A stretch of 12,574 bases of DNA from a virus. Lineage: Duplodnaviria > Heunggongvirae > Uroviricota > Caudoviricetes. The stretch lies in the IMG/VR virus record IMGVR_UViG_2518645559_000002, one strand, 5' to 3'. Shown piece by piece: positions 1 through 7,477 of this stretch (positions are counted from its first letter, which is position 1; each line of letters opens with the position of its first letter). The notes beneath the pieces were generated by a model. That model did no database searches. It was not told where the DNA came from and saw only the letters and a program-made list of their open reading frames with translations. The translations under genes and the position numbers were made by a program.

Positions 1-1248
1 ATGGCACTGAATATTCCATTCAGAAATGCGTACTATCGTTTTGCATCCAGTTACTCATTTCTCTTTTTTATTTCCTGGTCGCTGTGGTGGTCGTTATACG
101 CTATTTGGCTGAAAGGACATCTAGGGTTGACAGGGACGGAATTAGGTACACTTTATTCGGTCAACCAGTTTACCAGCATTCTATTTATGATGTTCTACGG
201 CATCGTTCAGGATAAACTCGGTCTGAAGAAACCGCTCATCTGGTGTATGAGTTTCATCCTGGTCTTGACCGGACCGTTTATGATTTACGTTTATGAACCG
301 TTACTGCAAAGCAATTTTTCTGTAGGTCTAATTCTGGGGGCGCTATTTTTTGGCTTGGGGTATCTGGCGGGATGCGGTTTGCTTGATAGCTTCACCGAAA
401 AAATGGCGCGAAATTTTCATTTCGAATATGGAACAGCGCGCGCCTGGGGATCTTTTGGCTATGCTATTGGCGCGTTCTTTGCCGGCATATTTTTTAGTAT
501 CAGTCCCCATATCAACTTCTGGTTGGTCTCGCTATTTGGCGCTGTATTTATGATGATCAACATGCGTTTTAAAGATAAGGATCACCAGTGCGTAGCGGCA
601 GATGCGGGAGGGGTAAAAAAAGAGGATTTTATCGCAGTTTTCAAGGATCGAAACTTCTGGGTTTTCGTCATATTTATTGTGGGGACGTGGTCTTTCTATA
701 ACATTTTTGATCAACAACTTTTTCCTGTCTTTTATTCAGGTTTATTCGAATCACACGATGTAGGAACGCGCCTGTATGGTTATCTCAACTCATTCCAGGT
801 GGTACTCGAAGCGCTGTGCATGGCGATTATTCCTTTCTTTGTGAATCGGGTAGGGCCAAAAAATGCATTACTTATCGGAGTTGTGATTATGGCGTTGCGT
901 ATCCTTTCCTGCGCGCTGTTCGTTAACCCCTGGATTATTTCATTAGTGAAGTTGTTACATGCCATTGAGGTTCCACTTTGTGTCATATCCGTCTTCAAAT
1001 ACAGCGTGGCAAACTTTGATAAGCGCCTGTCGTCGACGATCTTTCTGATTGGTTTTCAAATTGCCAGTTCGCTTGGGATTGTGCTGCTTTCAACGCCGAC
1101 TGGGATACTCTTTGACCACGCAGGCTACCAAACAGTTTTCTTCGCAATTTCGGGTATTGTCTGCCTGATGTTGCTATTTGGCATTTTCTTCTTGAGTAAA
1201 AAACGCGAGCAAATAGTTATGGAAACGCCTGTACCTTCAGCAATATAG
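1..1248 (+). CDS. cscB: Sucrose:H+ symporter, MFS oligosaccharide (LacY-type) permease, 415 aa, complete
   Basis: Full-length ORF from ATG at 1 to TAG at 1246-1248. Protein is hydrophobic with ~12 predicted membrane spans. N-terminus MALNIPFRNAYYRFASSYSFLFFISWSLWWSLYAIW matches my memory of E. coli CscB; not verified by search. Confidence 0.85.
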   Translation: MALNIPFRNAYYRFASSYSFLFFISWSLWWSLYAIWLKGHLGLTGTELGTLYSVNQFTSILFMMFYGIVQDKLGLKKPLIWCMSFILVLTGPFMIYVYEPLLQSNFSVGLILGALFFGLGYLAGCGLLDSFTEKMARNFHFEYGTARAWGSFGYAIGAFFAGIFFSISPHINFWLVSLFGAVFMMINMRFKDKDHQCVAADAGGVKKEDFIAVFKDRNFWVFVIFIVGTWSFYNIFDQQLFPVFYSGLFESHDVGTRLYGYLNSFQVVLEALCMAIIPFFVNRVGPKNALLIGVVIMALRILSCALFVNPWIISLVKLLHAIEVPLCVISVFKYSVANFDKRLSSTIFLIGFQIASSLGIVLLSTPTGILFDHAGYQTVFFAISGIVCLMLLFGIFFLSKKREQIVMETPVPSAI

Positions 1249-1256
1249 ACGTAAAC

Positions 1257-1301
1257 TTTTTCCGGTTGTTGTCGATAGCTCTATATCCCTCAACCGGAAA
1301 A
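1257..1301. other. Palindromic hairpin 3' of cscB (stem CCGGTTG/CAACCGG, 22-nt loop, flanked by T5 and A4); not a canonical rho-independent terminator on either strand
   Basis: Direct reading: tttttCCGGTTG(22 nt)CAACCGGaaaa. No U-tract follows the stem in either transcript orientation. Confidence 0.35.
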
Positions 1302-1689
1302 TAATAATAGTAAAATGCTTAGCCCTGCTAATAATCGCCTAATCCAAACGCCTCATTCATGTTCTGGTACAGTCGCTCAAATGTACTTCAGATGCGCGGT
1401 TCGCTGATTTCCAGGACATTGTCGTCATTCAGTGACCTGTCCCGTGTATCACGGTCCTGCGAATTCATCAAGGAATGCATTGCGGAGTGAAGTATCGAGT
1501 CACGCCATATTTCGCTATCAGGATTCTGTGTGATGGTTACATCGCCCGGCTCAGGGCTGTTTAGTCATCAGCGCTTTCTGACAGTGCTGAGATTTCAACC
1601 TGTTGCAGTAAAAATGAGTAGATATAAGGCAAGTGTGCTGCCAAACCCATCTTTTACGGGGTGAAGGTAGATTTCGTTTGAAGGGTATC

Positions 1690-1704
1690 TGGTGTCCCCT
1701 GCAG
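1690..1704 (-). other. attR-like core of the prophage: 15 nt identical to the 3' end of a tRNA (T-stem 3' strand, acceptor 3' strand, discriminator, CCA), consistent with argW tRNA-Arg
   Basis: Minus-strand sequence CTGCAGGGGACACCA reads as CCTGC-type T-stem 3' half + AGGGGAC acceptor + A + CCA. It lies at the boundary between the host flank (cscB side) and the first prophage gene (torI). Confidence 0.55.
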
Positions 1705-1777
1705 ACATCTACTTGAGGCGGCAGGGGATTGATTGGAATGGTGTTTTTTAGATGTGAGAAATATTTTACCCGCTATT

Positions 1778-1978
1778 TTACCCATTGGCGCGGCTTAAGA
1801 GCTTATTTTTGAATTCACAATGGTCACGATATAACCATCTTGCTCGCCCGTGGATAACTTTGGCTTTAGGCAGGTCTCCGGACTTAATCCGGTCATAGAT
1901 GAAGGTTTTACCGAAGCCAGTATCAGCCATGATGAATTTCAAATCAACCAGTGAATCAGGCTGTAGTTCGTGTTGCAT
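1778..1978 (-). CDS. torI: Excisionase / recombination directionality factor (AlpA/Xis-family winged-helix), 66 aa
   Basis: 66-aa ORF MQHELQPDSLVDLKFIMADTGFGKTFIYDRIKSGDLPKAKVIHGRARWLYRDHCEFKNKLLSRANG matches my memory of TorI of the KplE1 prophage. Position next to the att core fits. GGAG lies 9 nt upstream of the ATG. Confidence 0.8.
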   Translation of the reverse strand: MQHELQPDSLVDLKFIMADTGFGKTFIYDRIKSGDLPKAKVIHGRARWLYRDHCEFKNKLLSRANG

Positions 1979-1997
1979 GAGTGCTATCTCCGAATAG

Positions 1998-2013
1998 GGA
2001 ATCGAACCTGCAA
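1998..2013 (-). other. tRNA T-arm fragment (TTGCAGGTTCGATTCC on minus strand) immediately upstream of the torI start codon
   Basis: Minus-strand reading gives T-stem 5' half GCAGG + T-loop TTCGATT + CC. It is exactly contiguous in tRNA terms with the 1690-1704 fragment (1-nt overlap), but separated from it by 293 bp that contain torI. Confidence 0.5.
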
Positions 2014-2020
2014 ATCAGGC

Positions 2021-2044
2021 AATAAAAAACCGCCATCAGGCGGC
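2021..2044 (-). terminator. Rho-independent terminator for the minus-strand early operon
   Basis: Minus strand: CCGCC-TGAT-GGCGG stem-loop followed by TTTTTTATT. Sits between the last early gene (stop at 2110) and torI. Confidence 0.6.
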
Positions 2045-2109
2045 TTGGTGTTCTTTCAGTTCTTCAATTCGAATATTGGTTACATTGTTTTCATATATGA
2101 ATAAATAAA

Positions 2110-2289
2110 TTAGCTTTTTTCGTTGCCTTCGCGTTCTTTATTAATTTTAACAAACTCGTTTTTACCACGCTCTCCAAATGCGTCTTTAGAGTCGTTGTAT
2201 CCGCAATCGCAGCACACATAATCACCAGACCATCCACGCATTGTTTTTTCTTTTGCAATATTTCCAGAACCGCATTTTGGACAAGACAT
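2110..2289 (-). CDS. Small zinc-ribbon protein (CPKCG...CCDCG), 59 aa; function unknown, possibly Lar-like restriction-alleviation
   Basis: ORF MSCPKCGSGNIAKEKTMRGWSGDYVCCDCGYNDSK... with two CxxC pairs. GGAGG lies 7 nt upstream of the ATG at 2289. The track's longer 70-aa version lacks an RBS. Confidence 0.5.
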   Translation of the reverse strand: MSCPKCGSGNIAKEKTMRGWSGDYVCCDCGYNDSKDAFGERGKNEFVKINKEREGNEKS

Positions 2290-2385
2290 ATCACTACCTC
2301 CAAAGCATGAGTGAGATGACAACGTAACATTGATTGGAGATTAACAATAGATTGCTGATGTAAAAGATATGTATAAGCTTCGCTT

Positions 2386-3015
2386 TCAAAGTGGAGGCTC
2401 TGGTAGCGGCATCCAGTGTGACGGTTTCCACGACGCACCAGGAATTATCCACCCATCATTAGCGTCAGGATGACCCGGGATGTAAGTCGCCCATTTCATT
2501 CGCCAGTCACCTTTCCTGTCAAACTCCACGGCAACAAGAACGGCTGTTTTGGTATCCGGCATTCGCTCACTACAGCTTATCCAGCCATCCGGAGTTACCG
2601 GAGAGTTGCCGGGTTCTTTAATGTGCAAGCGAGGCTCACCATCTTTTGGTTCAGGCCACTGGCGTTCCATGTTGATCTTCAATTTATTTTCCATAGCAGC
2701 GGTAATTTCAGCATCACTGATACCAGCACGGCGCTGTGCATCCCACAACAGGAACTGCATATCAGCCCACTCGCTAAGATCGTCTGGTTCGGCTGCGGCT
2801 TCCAGTGCCTCTTTTGAGAGGTGTTTCAGTGGACCAATGGGGCCAACGCAGCCAAATGTGGAGTCAGACCATTTGGCATGCTCGTGGCGAATCTGTTCGC
2901 GTTCCAGTGATGCCAGTGCAATTCGTGCCAGTTCCATTTGTTCGCCACGAGTAAGCCCGTTTTCAAGCGGATTTTTAATGAACAATTCAATACGTTCTTT
3001 GGTAATAGTGGTCAT
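2386..3015 (-). CDS. Two-domain prophage protein: N-terminal MazG-like dATP/dGTP pyrophosphohydrolase-type domain (DUF550-like) plus C-terminal DUF551-like domain, 209 aa
   Basis: 209-aa ORF. Start ATG overlaps the stop of the upstream 69-aa gene (ATGA). N-terminal half is acidic and helical (EALEAAAEP...EWADMQFLLWD). C-terminal half (WISCSERMPD...VLVAVEF...WMPLPEPP) resembles DUF551 from memory. Confidence 0.6.
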   Translation of the reverse strand: MTTITKERIELFIKNPLENGLTRGEQMELARIALASLEREQIRHEHAKWSDSTFGCVGPIGPLKHLSKEALEAAAEPDDLSEWADMQFLLWDAQRRAGISDAEITAAMENKLKINMERQWPEPKDGEPRLHIKEPGNSPVTPDGWISCSERMPDTKTAVLVAVEFDRKGDWRMKWATYIPGHPDANDGWIIPGASWKPSHWMPLPEPPL

Positions 3016-3221
3016 GTGTTAATCCTCAAAACTTTATGCCCGGGCGCAAAAGTACGTGTTTTGTCTTTGCTTATTCGCCACCCGTCTTTACGGGCCTCTT
3101 TTGCACAACCAGACCATGACGTACCGATATACTCACCGAAGTCTGGCACTGGATATACACCTTCCGTACACTGGCGACAATCACAATAGAGATGCATGGT
3201 GTAACTTGCAGCGATAGCCAT
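3012..3221 (-). CDS. Small Cys-containing phage protein, 69 aa, unknown function
   Basis: ORF with strong SD (AAAGGAGAG) upstream of the ATG. Motif CDCRQC...C. Stop overlaps the start of the next gene (ATGA). Confidence 0.5.
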   Translation of the reverse strand: MAIAASYTMHLYCDCRQCTEGVYPVPDFGEYIGTSWSGCAKEARKDGWRISKDKTRTFAPGHKVLRINT

Positions 3222-3222
3222 A

Positions 3223-3411
3223 TCACTCTCCTTTAGTCCGCAAGTAGTTTTTCCAGCGGTTTTGCGCCGCGCTGGGCTTTTTGCAACAACTGTGACCCAT
3301 CACCCCGCAACACCCCATCAACCTCACTCGTCTGTTACTAATCCTCACCCATCGCCAGACCCCAACACCGTTTCTGCGAGCTAACAGAATCTTTGCTTTA
3401 CGGTTTTTCAT
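3223..3411 (-). CDS. Hypothetical basic Cys-rich small protein, 62 aa; coding status uncertain
   Basis: ORF with GGAGAG 7 nt upstream of the ATG. Protein is very Arg/Lys/Trp/Cys-rich and the DNA is compositionally odd (C-rich on + strand), so it may instead be regulatory or non-coding. Confidence 0.3.
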   Translation of the reverse strand: MKNRKAKILLARRNGVGVWRWVRISNRRVRLMGCCGVMGHSCCKKPSAAQNRWKNYLRTKGE

Positions 3412-3583
3412 CGTTTTGCTCTCCTGCGTCTCTTTGCTGCTCGTCGTGCCGCTGCAATACCGGTATGGCGGCGCTTTGGTGCCGGGATGATGTTGTCAGC
3501 TATCAGGACATGTGGCTTTGCAATTAGCGCAGAAGCCCAAAAACGAGTCGGGTACGGTAACAAGCCGATACATGCCACACGCA

Positions 3584-4255
3584 CTACTCACCCTCTTTGA
3601 TGCGAATGCCTGCGGCGCGTGGCACATTAACTTCCACGATGCGCACTGTTGGTTTGTACATCTCAATCGCTGTCAGCCAGTCAGCTCCTGTCATGCGCTT
3701 TTCCGCATCGCCATTAGTCCACTGAACCGGTACACCAATAGCCTTCATCGCGATTTCTATTTCCCCGGCAATGGCGCTTTTTCCGCAACCAGTAAAACCA
3801 GAAACAACGACAAGAACTTCACCTTTGGCTGGTTTTATTTCCCGTGCTTCCAGTTCTGCTATGCGCTTACTTCCATCCGAGATAACACCTTCGTAATACT
3901 TACGCTGCTCGTTGAGTTTTGATTTTGTCTCCTCAAGCTCAACACGCAGCTTCCCTACCGTTAGCGCAATGTCCTCGTTCTCCTGGTCGCGGCGTTTGAT
4001 ATATTGCTGGTTTCTTTCCCGTTCATCCAGCAGTGCCTGCACTACTTTAGGGTTGAAAGCTGCGATAAATTCTGCGTTGTTCTCTGCATTTTTCTGGCCG
4101 TCAAAGCCAGGCCATTTGATAATGTCTCCGCAACGTTCATCCCCCGGCGTATGCACCGCATATGTATCAGTGCCCGGCGAAATGAATGCGACCCATTCGC
4201 CCTGTGTTGCCTGTTTTGCTAACTCACGCAGTGCCTGATAGTCAATCTTGCTCAC
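3584..4255 (-). CDS. Ead/Ea22-like phage protein with central coiled-coil and C-terminal Walker-A-like motif (GFTGCGKS), 223 aa, GTG start
   Basis: GTG start preceded by AAAGGAGG and overlapping the upstream stop (GTGA). N-terminus [20 protein letters not shown]... is Ea22-like from memory. Middle is charged and heptad-like. C-terminus has [19 protein letters not shown]. Confidence 0.6.
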
Positions 4256-4419
4256 TGGTTGCCTCCTTTACGCCACATCGCATTCAGATATTTGTTTTGA
4301 TTCACTGATGGAAAAGAATTTCTCTTAAGCAATTCCTCTCTCGATGGCATTGGCTTTACGCGCTGGCGAATAATCATTTCTGCCGGAAGAATGCCGGGAT
4401 TGTATGCAAGTCCTCTCAT
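4252..4419 (-). CDS. Hypothetical small protein, 55 aa, translationally coupled
   Basis: ATG overlaps the stop of the upstream gene (ATGA); its stop overlaps the GTG of the downstream gene (GTGA). No recognisable family. Confidence 0.4.
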
Positions 4420-4706
4420 GATTTACTCTCCACGAACTGGTCAATAGCCATGCTAAGTGACACACCTAAAGTCTCGATATGCTGCTGAATATCCTGTAGC
4501 GTCTGCGCCTGAGATAACAGGATTTCACGGTTGCATAACTCTTTAACCAGATGCTCAAACTTGCTGTAATAACCGATACGACTTAGTGTTTCTTTCCCTG
4601 CATTCTCGTCTTCTTTGATAATTCCTCTTTCGCTAAGAATCAGATCGTGTTTTGTTCCGGTAATAACGTATTTTCCGAGGTCGATGTTTAGCTTCATTGT
4701 TTTCAT
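4416..4706 (-). CDS. Hypothetical phage early protein, 96 aa
   Basis: Start [14 protein letters not shown]... chosen at the ATG preceded by GAGGAA (6-nt spacing). The longer track ORF (147 aa) overlaps the upstream gene and lacks an RBS. Confidence 0.5.
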
Positions 4707-4716
4707 TGTTAATTCC

Positions 4717-5013
4717 TCAGTCATTACTGATAGCGCCATAGCGTGAGCGGTAATTACGCAGGCGCGGGTCGATATATTCAGGGAAGTGGGGGTATGTGGC
4801 TTTGCGGAATGGTCGGATTGATGTCTGGTAAATTCGCTCGCGTTCTTCTTTCTCTGCAAGCCATATACAATGGCGAAATTCCTTTTCCTCTTTCGTTTCC
4901 TGCGGTAGCGACATTATCAGGTCGTAGTTTTTCCTGAATTTATCCAGCACCTCCGATACGGAATTGCCGGAACAGCGGCGCGGGTCATCCGCACCATACA
5001 GAGGCGCTGGCAT
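4717..5013 (-). CDS. Hypothetical phage early protein, 98 aa; Abc-like anti-RecBCD role is speculative, based on position only
   Basis: ORF MPAPLYGADDPRRCSGNSVSEVLDKFRKNYDLIMS... with AAGGA upstream. Lies downstream of erf/ssb, as the abc genes do in P22. Confidence 0.5.
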   Translation of the reverse strand: MPAPLYGADDPRRCSGNSVSEVLDKFRKNYDLIMSLPQETKEEKEFRHCIWLAEKEERERIYQTSIRPFRKATYPHFPEYIDPRLRNYRSRYGAISND

Positions 5014-5036
5014 AATTAAATCCTTATTTTTCTAAA

Positions 5037-5420
5037 TCAGAATGGGATGGAATCGTCGTATACAGGAGTGTTCTGCTGGTTACTACTTTGCTGCTGCGGG
5101 CTGTTTCCTGAAGTTGCAAATCCAATCTTTGCATTCAGTAATTCAAGAGTGATGGATTGACCATTTTGCCCCTGATAAACATCAACCCTGATGTTTTCTC
5201 CGGTAATTTCCACAATGCCACCTTCAACAAGAACACTACGGTAGTAATCCGCTTGCGCTCCCGGCTTGGCAAATACAACGGTGCTGTAGTTTGTCCATTC
5301 TTTCTTTTTTGTCTGGCGATCGTAATACTGAACGCCAGCACGGATGTTGAATCCGATATTTTCCCCGGCCTGAAACTCTCTTGCGGGCTTGTTTAGTCTT
5401 ACAGTAATCGAATGTGCCAT
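5037..5420 (-). CDS. ssb: Phage-type single-stranded DNA-binding protein, 127 aa
   Basis: C-terminal tail ...PVYDDSIPF (DDxIPF SSB signature) preceded by a Q/S/N-rich linker. Start ATG overlaps the erf stop (TAATG). Confidence 0.7.
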   Translation of the reverse strand: MAHSITVRLNKPAREFQAGENIGFNIRAGVQYYDRQTKKKEWTNYSTVVFAKPGAQADYYRSVLVEGGIVEITGENIRVDVYQGQNGQSITLELLNAKIGFATSGNSPQQQSSNQQNTPVYDDSIPF

Positions 5421-6025
5421 TAAGCAGCAGCTCCTTCTAATTCGTCTCGTCTGATGTTGTAAACGTCCTGCGCTTTGTGCTGCTCCGGTGTGCCTTCGAG
5501 CATCTTCCACGCTTTGGCGAACGCCTGTTTAAGCTCTTCCACGGTGTTTTTCTGCAATGCTGCGTCAGTGAATGCTTTTAGAACCTGTTCAGGTGTAGGT
5601 GATGGTTTTGATTGCTTTGCTGCTGCGTTCTGCTGATGTTTATGCTCGTCGGTATCTGCATCTTTCGCATCATCAATGCCGAACAAACCATTGAGGCAAT
5701 ACTTGCGTGCATAAGAGCTTGTAGCTCCCGTAACTTGTGCAGAATCCATTCCTTTCTTGCTTTCTTCCTCTCGTGCAAGAGCGGTTGCCGTATGACTGTT
5801 TTCGCCATCGGTAATAGTTGCCGTGGCTTTCACGTAATACCGATCACCAATCAACACAACTTCATCGCTGATTGATAAAAACAGGCCATTCAGTAACGGC
5901 TTAACGCCTTCAAGAATGTCTTCGCAGCTTCTGTATTTATATTTACCGAATGAGTTGTACTGATTCTTTGGCGCGTTCAAGTTCTCCTGAATAGCTGCCA
6001 GTCTTGCGTAAAATTCTTTGCTCAT
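5420..6025 (-). CDS. erf: ERF-family single-strand annealing recombinase (P22 Erf-like), 201 aa
   Basis: MSKEFYARLAAIQENLNAPKNQYNSFGKYKYRSCEDILEGVKPLL... matches my memory of the P22 Erf N-terminus. Start taken at MSKEF rather than the track's upstream Met at 6055. Confidence 0.75.
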   Translation of the reverse strand: MSKEFYARLAAIQENLNAPKNQYNSFGKYKYRSCEDILEGVKPLLNGLFLSISDEVVLIGDRYYVKATATITDGENSHTATALAREEESKKGMDSAQVTGATSSYARKYCLNGLFGIDDAKDADTDEHKHQQNAAAKQSKPSPTPEQVLKAFTDAALQKNTVEELKQAFAKAWKMLEGTPEQHKAQDVYNIRRDELEGAAA

Positions 6026-6114
6026 ATGTTTGTTCTCAGAATGGGCATGGCCCAAGGAAATAACGCTGATTTAATACTTCAGTCTTTGCCGCATTTAAAA
6101 AGACGCGAACACCT

Positions 6115-6285
6115 TCACGATCTCCCTTCTGGCGATACATTAACGCCTGCTGCGTGTACATGCGTCTCTGTAACTTGCTCTCCTTCACGGTGGTTGCAAG
6201 TGACATGAATATCTCCTTCGTTACCGAATAATTCTTTCATCTGACGAATGAATTCTTCGTCTGACCAGTTATCTGTAAAGCTCAT
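6115..6285 (-). CDS. Hypothetical small acidic protein, 56 aa (position suggests an Arf-like accessory recombination gene; speculative)
   Basis: ATG preceded by AGGA and overlapping the stop of the upstream gene (ATGA). Lies immediately upstream of erf. Confidence 0.45.
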   Translation of the reverse strand: MSFTDNWSDEEFIRQMKELFGNEGDIHVTCNHREGEQVTETHVHAAGVNVSPEGRS

Positions 6286-6434
6286 TTCCTGCGATACCAT
6301 GGAAGGTTGATAGCTGATTTCATCGCTTTATTTGCTTCAAGCCACATTTTTGAATCACCAATAAATCTGGCTATTACTGCTTTGTTCTGTGCAGCACGAA
6401 GCATCTGGTGATTGATGGCTATTTCATTGCGCAT
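6282..6434 (-). CDS. Kil-like small protein, 50 aa (candidate FtsZ-inhibitor/host-killing function)
   Basis: ORF MRNEIAINHQMLRAAQNKAVIARFIGDSKMWLEANKAMKSAINLPWYRRK. The FIGDxKM motif and position just after cIII recall lambda Kil; weak, memory-based. Confidence 0.4.
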   Translation of the reverse strand: MRNEIAINHQMLRAAQNKAVIARFIGDSKMWLEANKAMKSAINLPWYRRK

Positions 6435-6550
6435 AATAAGACCTCAACTCTTTTCCATCCGTCACGTAATTTACGGGTGATTCGTTCAAGTAAAGATTCA
6501 TTTAATTGGAAGGCACCCATGCGAGCGCCTCCCGCGATTGCGTAAATCAT
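6419..6550 (-). CDS. c3: CIII-like FtsH (HflB) protease inhibitor, 43 aa
   Basis: MIYAIAGGARMGAFQLNESLLERITRKLRDGWKRVEVLLCAMK. Core ESLLERITRKLRDGWKR matches lambda CIII from memory. AAGGA lies 8 nt upstream of the ATG. Confidence 0.65.
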   Translation of the reverse strand: MIYAIAGGARMGAFQLNESLLERITRKLRDGWKRVEVLLCAMK

Positions 6551-6574
6551 GGGTGGTTCCTTATGTTGGTTTTA

Positions 6575-6724
6575 TTAGTAGGTTATTTTTGTTGCGAATA
6601 CTTCGCCTTTTACGATGGCTGTTATGATATTTTTAGCAACATCTTCTGATGCACCAACCTTGATAAGGTCAGCAAGTATTTTGTTATTTACTTCTTTCCG
6701 GTGAGCTTTATCCTTTGCTCTACG
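6575..6724 (-). pseudogene. 3' remnant (49 codons) of a minus-strand gene whose 5' part is removed at the IS1 junction
   Basis: Open frame runs without a start codon from the IS1 left end to the stop at 6575-6577 (...ILADLIKVGASEDVAKNIITAIVKGEVFATKITY*). Confidence 0.4.
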
Positions 6725-6779
6725 GGTGATGCTGCCAACTTACTGATTTAGTGTATGATGGTGTTTTTGAGGTGCTCCA

Positions 6780-7055
6780 GTGGCTTCTGTTTCTATCAGC
6801 TGTCCCTCCTGTTCAGCTACTGACGGGGTGGTGCGTAACGGCAAAAGCACCGCCGGACATCAGCGCTATCTCTGCTCTCACTGCCGTAAAACATGGCAAC
6901 TGCAGTTCACTTACACCGCTTCTCAACCCGGTACGCACCAGAAAATCATTGATATGGCCATGAATGGCGTTGGATGCCGGGCAACCGCCCGCATTATGGG
7001 CGTTGGCCTCAACACGATTTTCCGCCATTTAAAAAACTCAGGCCGCAGTCGGTAA
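6780..7055 (+). CDS. insA: IS1 InsA (transposition regulator; N-terminal part of the InsAB' transposase), 91 aa
   Basis: [43 protein letters not shown]... Starts 55 nt into the element, as in IS1. Confidence 0.85.
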
Positions 7056-7477
7056 CCTCGCGCATACAGCCGGGCAGTGACGTCATCGTCTGCGCGGAAA
7101 TGGACGAACAGTGGGGATACGTCGGGGCTAAATCGCGCCAGCGCTGGCTGTTTTACGCGTATGACAGGCTCCGGAAGACGGTTGTTGCGCACGTATTCGG
7201 TGAACGCACTATGGCGACGCTGGGGCGTCTTATGAGCCTGCTGTCACCCTTTGACGTGGTGATATGGATGACGGATGGCTGGCCGCTGTATGAATCCCGC
7301 CTGAAGGGAAAGCTGCACGTAATCAGCAAGCGATATACGCAGCGAATTGAGCGGCATAACCTGAATCTGAGGCAGCACCTGGCACGACTGGGACGGAAGT
7401 CGCTGTCGTTCTCAAAATCGGTGGAGCTGCATGACAAAGTCATCGGGCATTATCTGAACATAAAACACTATCAATAA
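6974..7477 (+). CDS. insB: IS1 InsB reading frame (fused to InsA by -1 frameshift to give the transposase)
   Basis: 167-aa ORF overlapping the insA 3' end in the -1 frame; ...[21 protein letters not shown]... typical of IS1 InsB. Confidence 0.85.

Follow-up and report, generated by a model that had tools for sequence, protein, structure and literature searches.

Why the 3' end of a single tRNA gene should be written in two pieces on either side of an excisionase gene is the question raised by the 12,574-nucleotide stretch of DNA analysed here (the window). Read on the minus strand, positions 2013-1998 give TTGCAGGTTCGATTCC and positions 1704-1690 give CTGCAGGGGACACCA, and the 293 bp that part them (1705-1997) hold torI (1778-1978, minus strand), the gene for the recombination directionality factor (RDF), or excisionase, TorI. 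No tRNA gene was detected in the window by ARAGORN. E. coli O104:H4 FDAARGOS_348 contains the window at 100% identity, and in it a tRNA-Arg gene lies 162 nt past intS, just off the right window edge; the tRNA sequence itself was taken from a sister strain with identical intS. The 3' end of this tRNA-Arg(CCU) gene, argW, reads ...GCTAATTGCAGGTTCGATTCCTGCAGGGGACACCA, and both pieces match it exactly and are contiguous in it, with one base (C62) common to both, which bears out the original prediction that the two fragments abut in the cognate tRNA and would be found side by side in the intact gene beyond the window edge. Positions 1998-2013 match argW at 16/16 letters, through the 5' strand of the T stem, the T loop and CC, where 5.9e-6 exact 16-mers would be expected in the window and about 1.1e-5 matches to any tRNA 16-mer within 800 nt, and TTGCAGGTTCGATTCC remains the sole match in the window even when three mismatches are permitted. 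The same two-piece arrangement occurs in E. coli K-12 MG1655.

The window TorI is 100% identical to that of the KplE1/CPS-53 module, shared by phages HK620 and Sf6. In KplE1/HK620-type modules the integrase is expressed constitutively at a low level, and control of excision is thought to rest entirely on expression of the RDF (PMC2951348). The surrounding prophage is P22-like and inserted at argW, and in FDAARGOS_348 it is reduced to about 11 kb, with IS1B beside the tailspike gene (window 6780-7477 and 7495-9207); in other O104:H4 genomes the prophage is full, with about 20 kb between window positions 1-7492 and the intS end.

The reading that we favour, with reasonable though far from complete confidence, is that the two "halves" differ in kind: the right piece is an attR core, and the left piece contains a separate, selected, tRNA-derived box of phage origin in the torI leader. 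The features on which the argument turns are collected in Table 1.

Table 1. Features of the torI-attR segment and of the intS end, in window coordinates.
Feature	Position	Strand	Basis or remark
attR common core, CTGCAGGGGACACCA; displaced argW 3' end (tRNA positions 62-76); pawZ in K-12	1690..1704	-	tRNA and K-12 comparison
7-bp overlap (crossover), TGCAGGG, between inverted core-type sites G(A/G)TGTC and GACAC(C)	1697..1703	-	inferred
Phage-side core-type site (C site), GTAGATGTC; degenerate T-loop-like, adjoins crossover	1704..1712	-	core comparison
Two direct GGGTAAAA repeats; IntS arm-type sites of the P arm, overlapping the torI stop codon	1764..1783	-	HK620 annotation
torI; recombination directionality factor (excisionase) TorI, 66 aa	1778..1978	-	
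Putative cII-dependent promoter pI; cII site TTGCCTGATTTGC	1985..2023	-	HK620/Sf6 GenBank records; annotation, unsupported by conservation
Shine-Dalgarno GGAG of torI, 6 nt downstream of the box	1988..1991	-	
T-loop box, GTTCGATTCCC; tRNA positions 53-62 plus one C	1997..2007	-	invariant across diverged TorI-family modules
Full 16-nt argW T-arm identity, TTGCAGGTTCGATTCC	1998..2013	-	sequence match to tRNA
Intrinsic terminator-like hairpin GCCGCC-TGAT-GGCGG, then T run; ends upstream eaG	2024..2044	-	
intS; integrase of the same recombination module; attL and intact tRNA just past the window edge	11417..12574	-	

The attR core and its core-type sites

The right piece is an ordinary KplE1/CPS-53-type attR core, left by IntS-mediated integration and already known, and in this respect the original prediction, which took it for an att core, agrees with the record: the published 16-nt KplE1 core, CTGCAGGGGACACCAT (PMC2951348), is present here with 15 nt duplicated, the same 15 nt form the annotated pseudogene pawZ of K-12, and positions 1690-1704 recur at attL inside the intact tRNA. 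The core lies together with phage-side arm sites and torI, with intS at the other end of the element beside the tRNA. The GGGTAAAA repeat is annotated as an "attP" repeat in HK620, and arm sites of these modules carry a TAAA motif (PMC2951348).

Comparison of 33 distinct attP/attR cores from related modules showed that TGCAGGG is invariant and is flanked by the inverted sequences G(A/G)TGTC and GACAC(C); by analogy with lambda-type integrases, TGCAGGG would be the overlap region and its flanks the core-type sites. On the phage side, left of the crossover, all 33 cores have a T-loop-like C site of their own, whether or not the module carries the upstream box. The consensus of this site is ATTnG(A/G)TGTC, exemplified by CAGGTTAGATGTA in Chronis and CTGATTCGATGTA in Midgardsormr38, and it agrees with the tRNA T arm at up to 9 of 13 positions, as in the Chronis example.

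Two further observations concern the att sites. A conserved inverted repeat, CCCCTGC ... GCAGGGG, surrounds the C site (minus strand, window 1721-1727 and 1696-1702), with the overlap region as its 3' arm; it occurs in KplE1, Midgardsormr38, Chronis, Eho49, phiEt88 and the metagenomic relative L184, is shortened in Emek and Edwardsiella, and could form a hairpin where the torI transcript ends or serve as an additional protein site. At attL (L001 1315-1350) the tRNA T-loop pentamer GTTCG is 31 bp from the TorI site I1, and in HK620 attP sites I1-I2 are 20 bp apart and I3-I5 10 bp apart; with these spacings the T-loop pentamer lies roughly in helical phase with I1, and TorI might touch the B arm of attL too.

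The T-loop box of torI leaders

The left piece had been predicted to lie in the region just upstream of torI, and it does: its conserved part, the T-loop box GTTCGATTCCC, starts 26-30 nt before the ATG of the RDF gene (about 29 in the torI leader) and ends 3-8 nt before the Shine-Dalgarno sequence across modules. It is invariant, identical to the tRNA, borne by phages, fixed in position and, in some lineages, duplicated in tandem. The left piece is found in the phage genome records of HK620, Sf6, Emek, Midgardsormr38 and phiEt88, between the early-left genes and the RDF gene; it is phage DNA of the torI-attP-intS module, which travels with the phage, and not an integration scar. Among 80 IMG/VR loci with a 100%-identical TorI, every distinct torI leader has the box, single-base variants are rare, and at least two unrelated alleles lie upstream. 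Across IMG/VR, the combination of box and Shine-Dalgarno sequence precedes TorI-like genes only, the remaining matches being real tRNAs or att fragments.

When RDFs of the TorI family were grouped into 17 clusters (<85% amino acid identity), the exact 11-mer was present in 8, including that of Edwardsiella and that of a relative with only 30% identity, and absent from 9, including those of Chronis, Eho49 and Cronobacter, so that the box is dispensable. Upstream of the RDF gene stand CAGGTTCGATTCCCgtCAGGTTCGATTCCC, with two tandem copies of the box, in Erwinia phage Midgardsormr38 (TorI identity 88%); CAGGTTCGATTCCCTG in Edwardsiella tarda (76%); AAGTTCGATTCCC in Salmonella phage Emek (about 50%); AGGTTCGATTCCC in Erwinia phage phiEt88 (36-39%); and two tandem copies 13 nt apart in the metagenomic relative L184 (30%). 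The tandem boxes of these two unrelated lineages (L004 2457-2485; L184 1456-1483) have periods of 16 and 13 nt. Full 16-nt identity to the tRNA depends on a 5' extension, TTGCAG, specific to the KplE1/HK620/Sf6 clade; in other lineages just 11-14 nt of the left piece match, with CAG kept in most of them. At its other end the tRNA identity of the box stops at C62, the base before the inferred overlap TGCAGGG.

The source of the box is itself constant. IntS-type integrases with 58-100% identity, from about 40 Enterobacterales species, all adjoin tRNA-Arg(CCU), and every TorI-family module, like every close IntS relative, targets this same tRNA. Its T arm, GCAGGTTCGATTCCTGC, is found in almost all of these species, one T-stem base differing in two of them, and its T loop, GGTTCGATTCC, of which the box is a copy, is the same in all, and therefore the box equals the host T loop in every lineage. 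No extra T-loop copy was seen within 2.5 kb of distant integrases at other tRNAs.

The DNA around the box is far less constant. Six leader lineages that are independent of one another agree fully (100%) within the box, but to 36% over the 12 nt upstream of it, to 27% over the spacer and to 49% over the last 6 nt ahead of the ATG. Unrelated left flanks meet the box at its 5' edge, where mosaic joints and deletions of independent origin pile up. Invariance at such divergence is unlike that of a neutral relic, and on these comparisons the box is maintained by purifying selection, with the proviso that some of the seemingly deep conservation could stem from Emek-like lineages having exchanged 5' gene segments by recombination.

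Several observations bear on the mosaic upstream of the box. The terminator-like hairpin of the window belongs to an allele common to P22 eaG. In many modules the box is preceded by the first 11-20 codons of a P22-type xis (MESHSLTLDEACAFLKIS...), cut at varying points; this allele, a 5' remnant of P22-type xis that in K-12 is ypdJ (L389 300-335; also L007 2400-2460, IMG/VR loci), shows that a P22-type xis-int module once stood where the torI-attP-intS module has taken its place. In a subgroup of loci (L167, L170-L177) a clean deletion fuses GCCTG to GAGATAA and leaves the terminator and Shine-Dalgarno sequence in place; these loci appear to have lost the box by that deletion and would serve as natural box-less controls. 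On the plus strand, window positions 1928-2055, antisense to the torI 5' end, match the Rfam family STnc130, a Salmonella sRNA, at 25 bits against a gathering score of 55, a match driven mainly by the terminator hairpin and probably spurious.

Candidate roles and alternative explanations

Judged by its position and conservation, the box is likely a cis-acting element that tunes synthesis of the excisionase. How it might do so can be framed only tentatively. In our leading guess, to which we would give perhaps one chance in four or a little less, it is a putative mimic of the B-arm half-site of attB: the integrase, through its core-binding and catalytic domains, would bind the box, and integrase occupancy would thereby be coupled to TorI production. 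The box comprises tRNA positions 53-62, immediately 5' of the inferred overlap TGCAGGG, and since its tRNA identity ends at C62 it is the 10 bp expected as the B-arm half-site of attB. Besides these boundaries, its invariance fits such a mimic, paralleling that of the tRNA and the good conservation of the integrase, which in related modules is 61-84% identical where the RDFs range from 36 to 88%. Against an integrase half-site, the real phage-side core sites are all of the form G(A/G)TGTC, whereas the box stays tRNA-like (GATTCC), with no drift toward the stronger form; neither the TGCAGGG overlap nor an inverted partner half-site is present next to the box; and a protein bound to the DNA 6 nt upstream of the Shine-Dalgarno sequence would have no obvious effect on read-through transcripts. 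About as likely as the attB mimic is that the box would be recognised in the mRNA leader and act on the initiation of translation. Put more broadly, a T-loop half-site mimic may let the integrase or a T-loop-recognising host factor gate excisionase synthesis, a candidate mechanism that we rate at roughly one chance in five.

Other routes of action were considered and set aside. A structured RNA element was rejected. RNAalifold on eight diverse leaders yielded only a 4-bp UUCC:GGAG helix of marginal stability (-0.28 kcal/mol) with no covariation, and the local single-sequence fold has a z of -1.7; Rfam gave nothing credible for the leader, its 7-bit match being to the T loop of tmRNA, and ARAGORN finds no tRNA at positions 1998-2013, where an extra C displaces the 3' T-stem strand, if that strand is present at all, and no hairpin is conserved. 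Pairing of GCAGGUUC with 16S rRNA, whose helix 45 is complementary to it in the loop and the 3' strand, was likewise rejected, the target hairpin being stable and dimethylated and GCAGG being unconserved outside the KplE1 clade. Binding of TorR, suggested by the resemblance of the tor box CTGTTCATAT to CTGTTCGATT, amounts to a single half-match without repeats and is too weak. HK620 has just one copy of the box even when one mismatch is allowed, and a multi-site operator of regulon type was rejected on that ground.

That the box is an operator for TorI itself is improbable, at about one chance in eight. TorI binds GTTCG pentamers, and RDFs of the family, such as P4 Vis, autoregulate. AlpA-type RDFs often double as transcription regulators. 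The box carries GTTCG (2007-2003), the TorI pentamer defined in attL, and GTCCG, which stands in an Edwardsiella variant, is another of the pentamers accepted by TorI (GTTCG/GATCG/GTCCG; PMC2951348). In phiEt88, L158, L164 and L165, however, the P' arm repeats have become RTTAC/GTAAC, with no GTTCG, and the recognition helix has changed from GKTFIYDRIK to FTAKYFYSQI, yet the box GTTCGATTCCC is unchanged. The box is thus independent of RDF binding specificity, with which, unlike the P' arm sites, it does not co-vary, and it is equally independent of the C site of attP. Moreover, the ATTCCC portion is as invariant as GTTCG, although the flanks of genuine TorI sites vary; a lone pentamer is ill suited to cooperative multi-site binding; and the tandem copies recur at 13 or 16 bp rather than at 10-11. 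The P' arm repeats are of several types (GTTCG, RTTAC, GAACC and GTAAAC; L158, L164, L165, L008, and the attL flanks of L325-L341), and where both can be read the repeat type tracks the RDF recognition helix while integrase and core stay constant, which looks like a natural series of specificity switches. Pseudomonas matches of AlpA type (F116, phi297) were dropped from the comparison, their layout being different and int convergent.

Only about one chance in ten attaches to the reading embodied in the HK620 and Sf6 annotations (GenBank AF335538 and AF547987), in which the fragment forms the spacer within pI, a promoter activated by cII: cII would bind TTGCCTGATTTGC and transcription would start in or after the Shine-Dalgarno sequence, giving integrase without TorI during lysogenisation. 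The geometry is like that of lambda pI in xis, with 12-13 nt from the second TTGC to a weak -10 (TATTCG). The cII-type signature TTGC-N6-TTGC is, however, not found at the -35 of the torI leader: the repeat is TTGC-N5-TTGC here, against N6 in HK620 pRE, and many loci that are otherwise identical have TTAC in place of its first TTGC. The TTGC repeats are missing from Emek, phiEt88, Midgardsormr38, Edwardsiella and L184, all of which keep the box, and a promoter spacer would not be expected to be the invariant part. The pI/cII annotation of HK620 and Sf6 is thus not supported by conservation.

The original prediction offered two histories for the separated pieces. In the first, which we place as low as the promoter reading, an ancestral attP carried a tRNA identity block of about 31 nt, from T arm through CCA (contiguous form CAGGTTCGATTCCTGCAGGGGACACCA), that insertion of the RDF module split between C62 and T63. 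Box and core do abut perfectly in tRNA coordinates in every lineage, and the break falls at the inferred top-strand cleavage position, where an integrase-mediated illegitimate event could explain it. A split attP predicts no core-proximal T-loop sequence, yet the C site stands beside the overlap in all 33 distinct cores, box or no box, and the box is therefore a second copy of the T arm, not a missing half. The box-less modules of Chronis and Eho49, furthermore, share the same xis-attP-int layout; the box is invariant while neighbouring DNA diverges, as a neutral relic would not be; tandem copies exist; and a longer tRNA extension was not found, the pattern CTARTTGCAGGTTCGATTCCC having no match in IMG/VR. 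The box may still have had an ancient origin in the tRNA, perhaps through an event at the integrase cleavage position.

The second history, superimposed integrations with different crossover points in this chromosome, leaving the upstream fragment as an att junction, has very little in its favour beyond the fact that argW is a hot spot for many different elements; it is contradicted by the phage genome records, in which the fragment is identically placed (HK620, Sf6, Emek, Midgardsormr38, phiEt88) and so was not created in this host. A chance likeness of the leader to a generic T loop can be dismissed, for although GGTTCGAnnCC is common among tRNAs and about 0.5 occurrences of the 11-mer with up to one mismatch are expected per 38-kb phage genome, the match here is 16/16 to the element's own target tRNA, ends where the att core begins (1e-5 expected), and has its box at the same position in diverged modules.

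Returning to the selected leader box, its significance is first of all practical: an invariant tRNA-derived 11-mer at a fixed place in the torI leader, from E. coli to Erwinia and Edwardsiella, offers a concrete, mutable target for the study of torI control, a box-mutant form of GTTCGATTCCC being CAAGCTAAGGG. Two ideas are corrected as well: the fragment is no leftover of a divided attP, and the pI/cII label that the HK620 and Sf6 records have long carried is not borne out by conservation. If the box does mimic an attB half-site, a phage would here be tying target recognition to directionality in a manner not seen before; the identity of the integration target would feed into the control of directionality, through a regulatory layer so far unrecognised in modules whose int and xis are not coupled in transcription.

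Comparison with known systems

In the literature searched, which excludes the JBC 2007 and Virology 2010 KplE1 papers, no description was found of a T-loop box upstream of torI. Autoregulation by RDFs such as P4 Vis, P2 Cox and 186 Apl offers a first parallel, torI being likewise preceded by the DNA pentamer of its own RDF; the box differs in not co-varying with RDF specificity, and no promoter is evident at it. Lambda pI, the cII-dependent integrase promoter whose transcript has no functional xis start, offers a second, the box lying likewise just upstream of, or overlapping, the start of RDF translation, as annotated in HK620 and Sf6; it departs from lambda pI in the spacing of its TTGC repeat (N5 in place of N6, and polymorphic) and in the absence of that repeat from other box-bearing lineages. 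Closer in sequence terms are the C/C'/B/B' half-sites of lambda, since the box equals the 10 bp left of the inferred attB overlap and attP has inverted sites around TGCAGGG; unlike a lambda half-site, however, the box is isolated, with the core about 290 bp away and neither overlap nor partner beside it, and is of a weak B-type rather than the C-type consensus.

The module as a whole is that of KplE1/CPS-53 (HK620, Sf6), attL-intS ... torI-attR, with the same core, argW target and GGGTAAAA arm repeats. Panis et al. (PMC2951348, PMC3509656) define KplE1 attR by its core together with the arm sites and the sites for IHF and TorI, and the right piece, like the displaced tRNA 3'-end fragment pawZ of K-12, is a direct repeat made by site-specific integration. 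The upstream 16-mer differs from such displaced fragments in that it belongs to phage DNA in its attP form, lies 293 bp inside the element, and covers a part of the T arm that is absent from the core.
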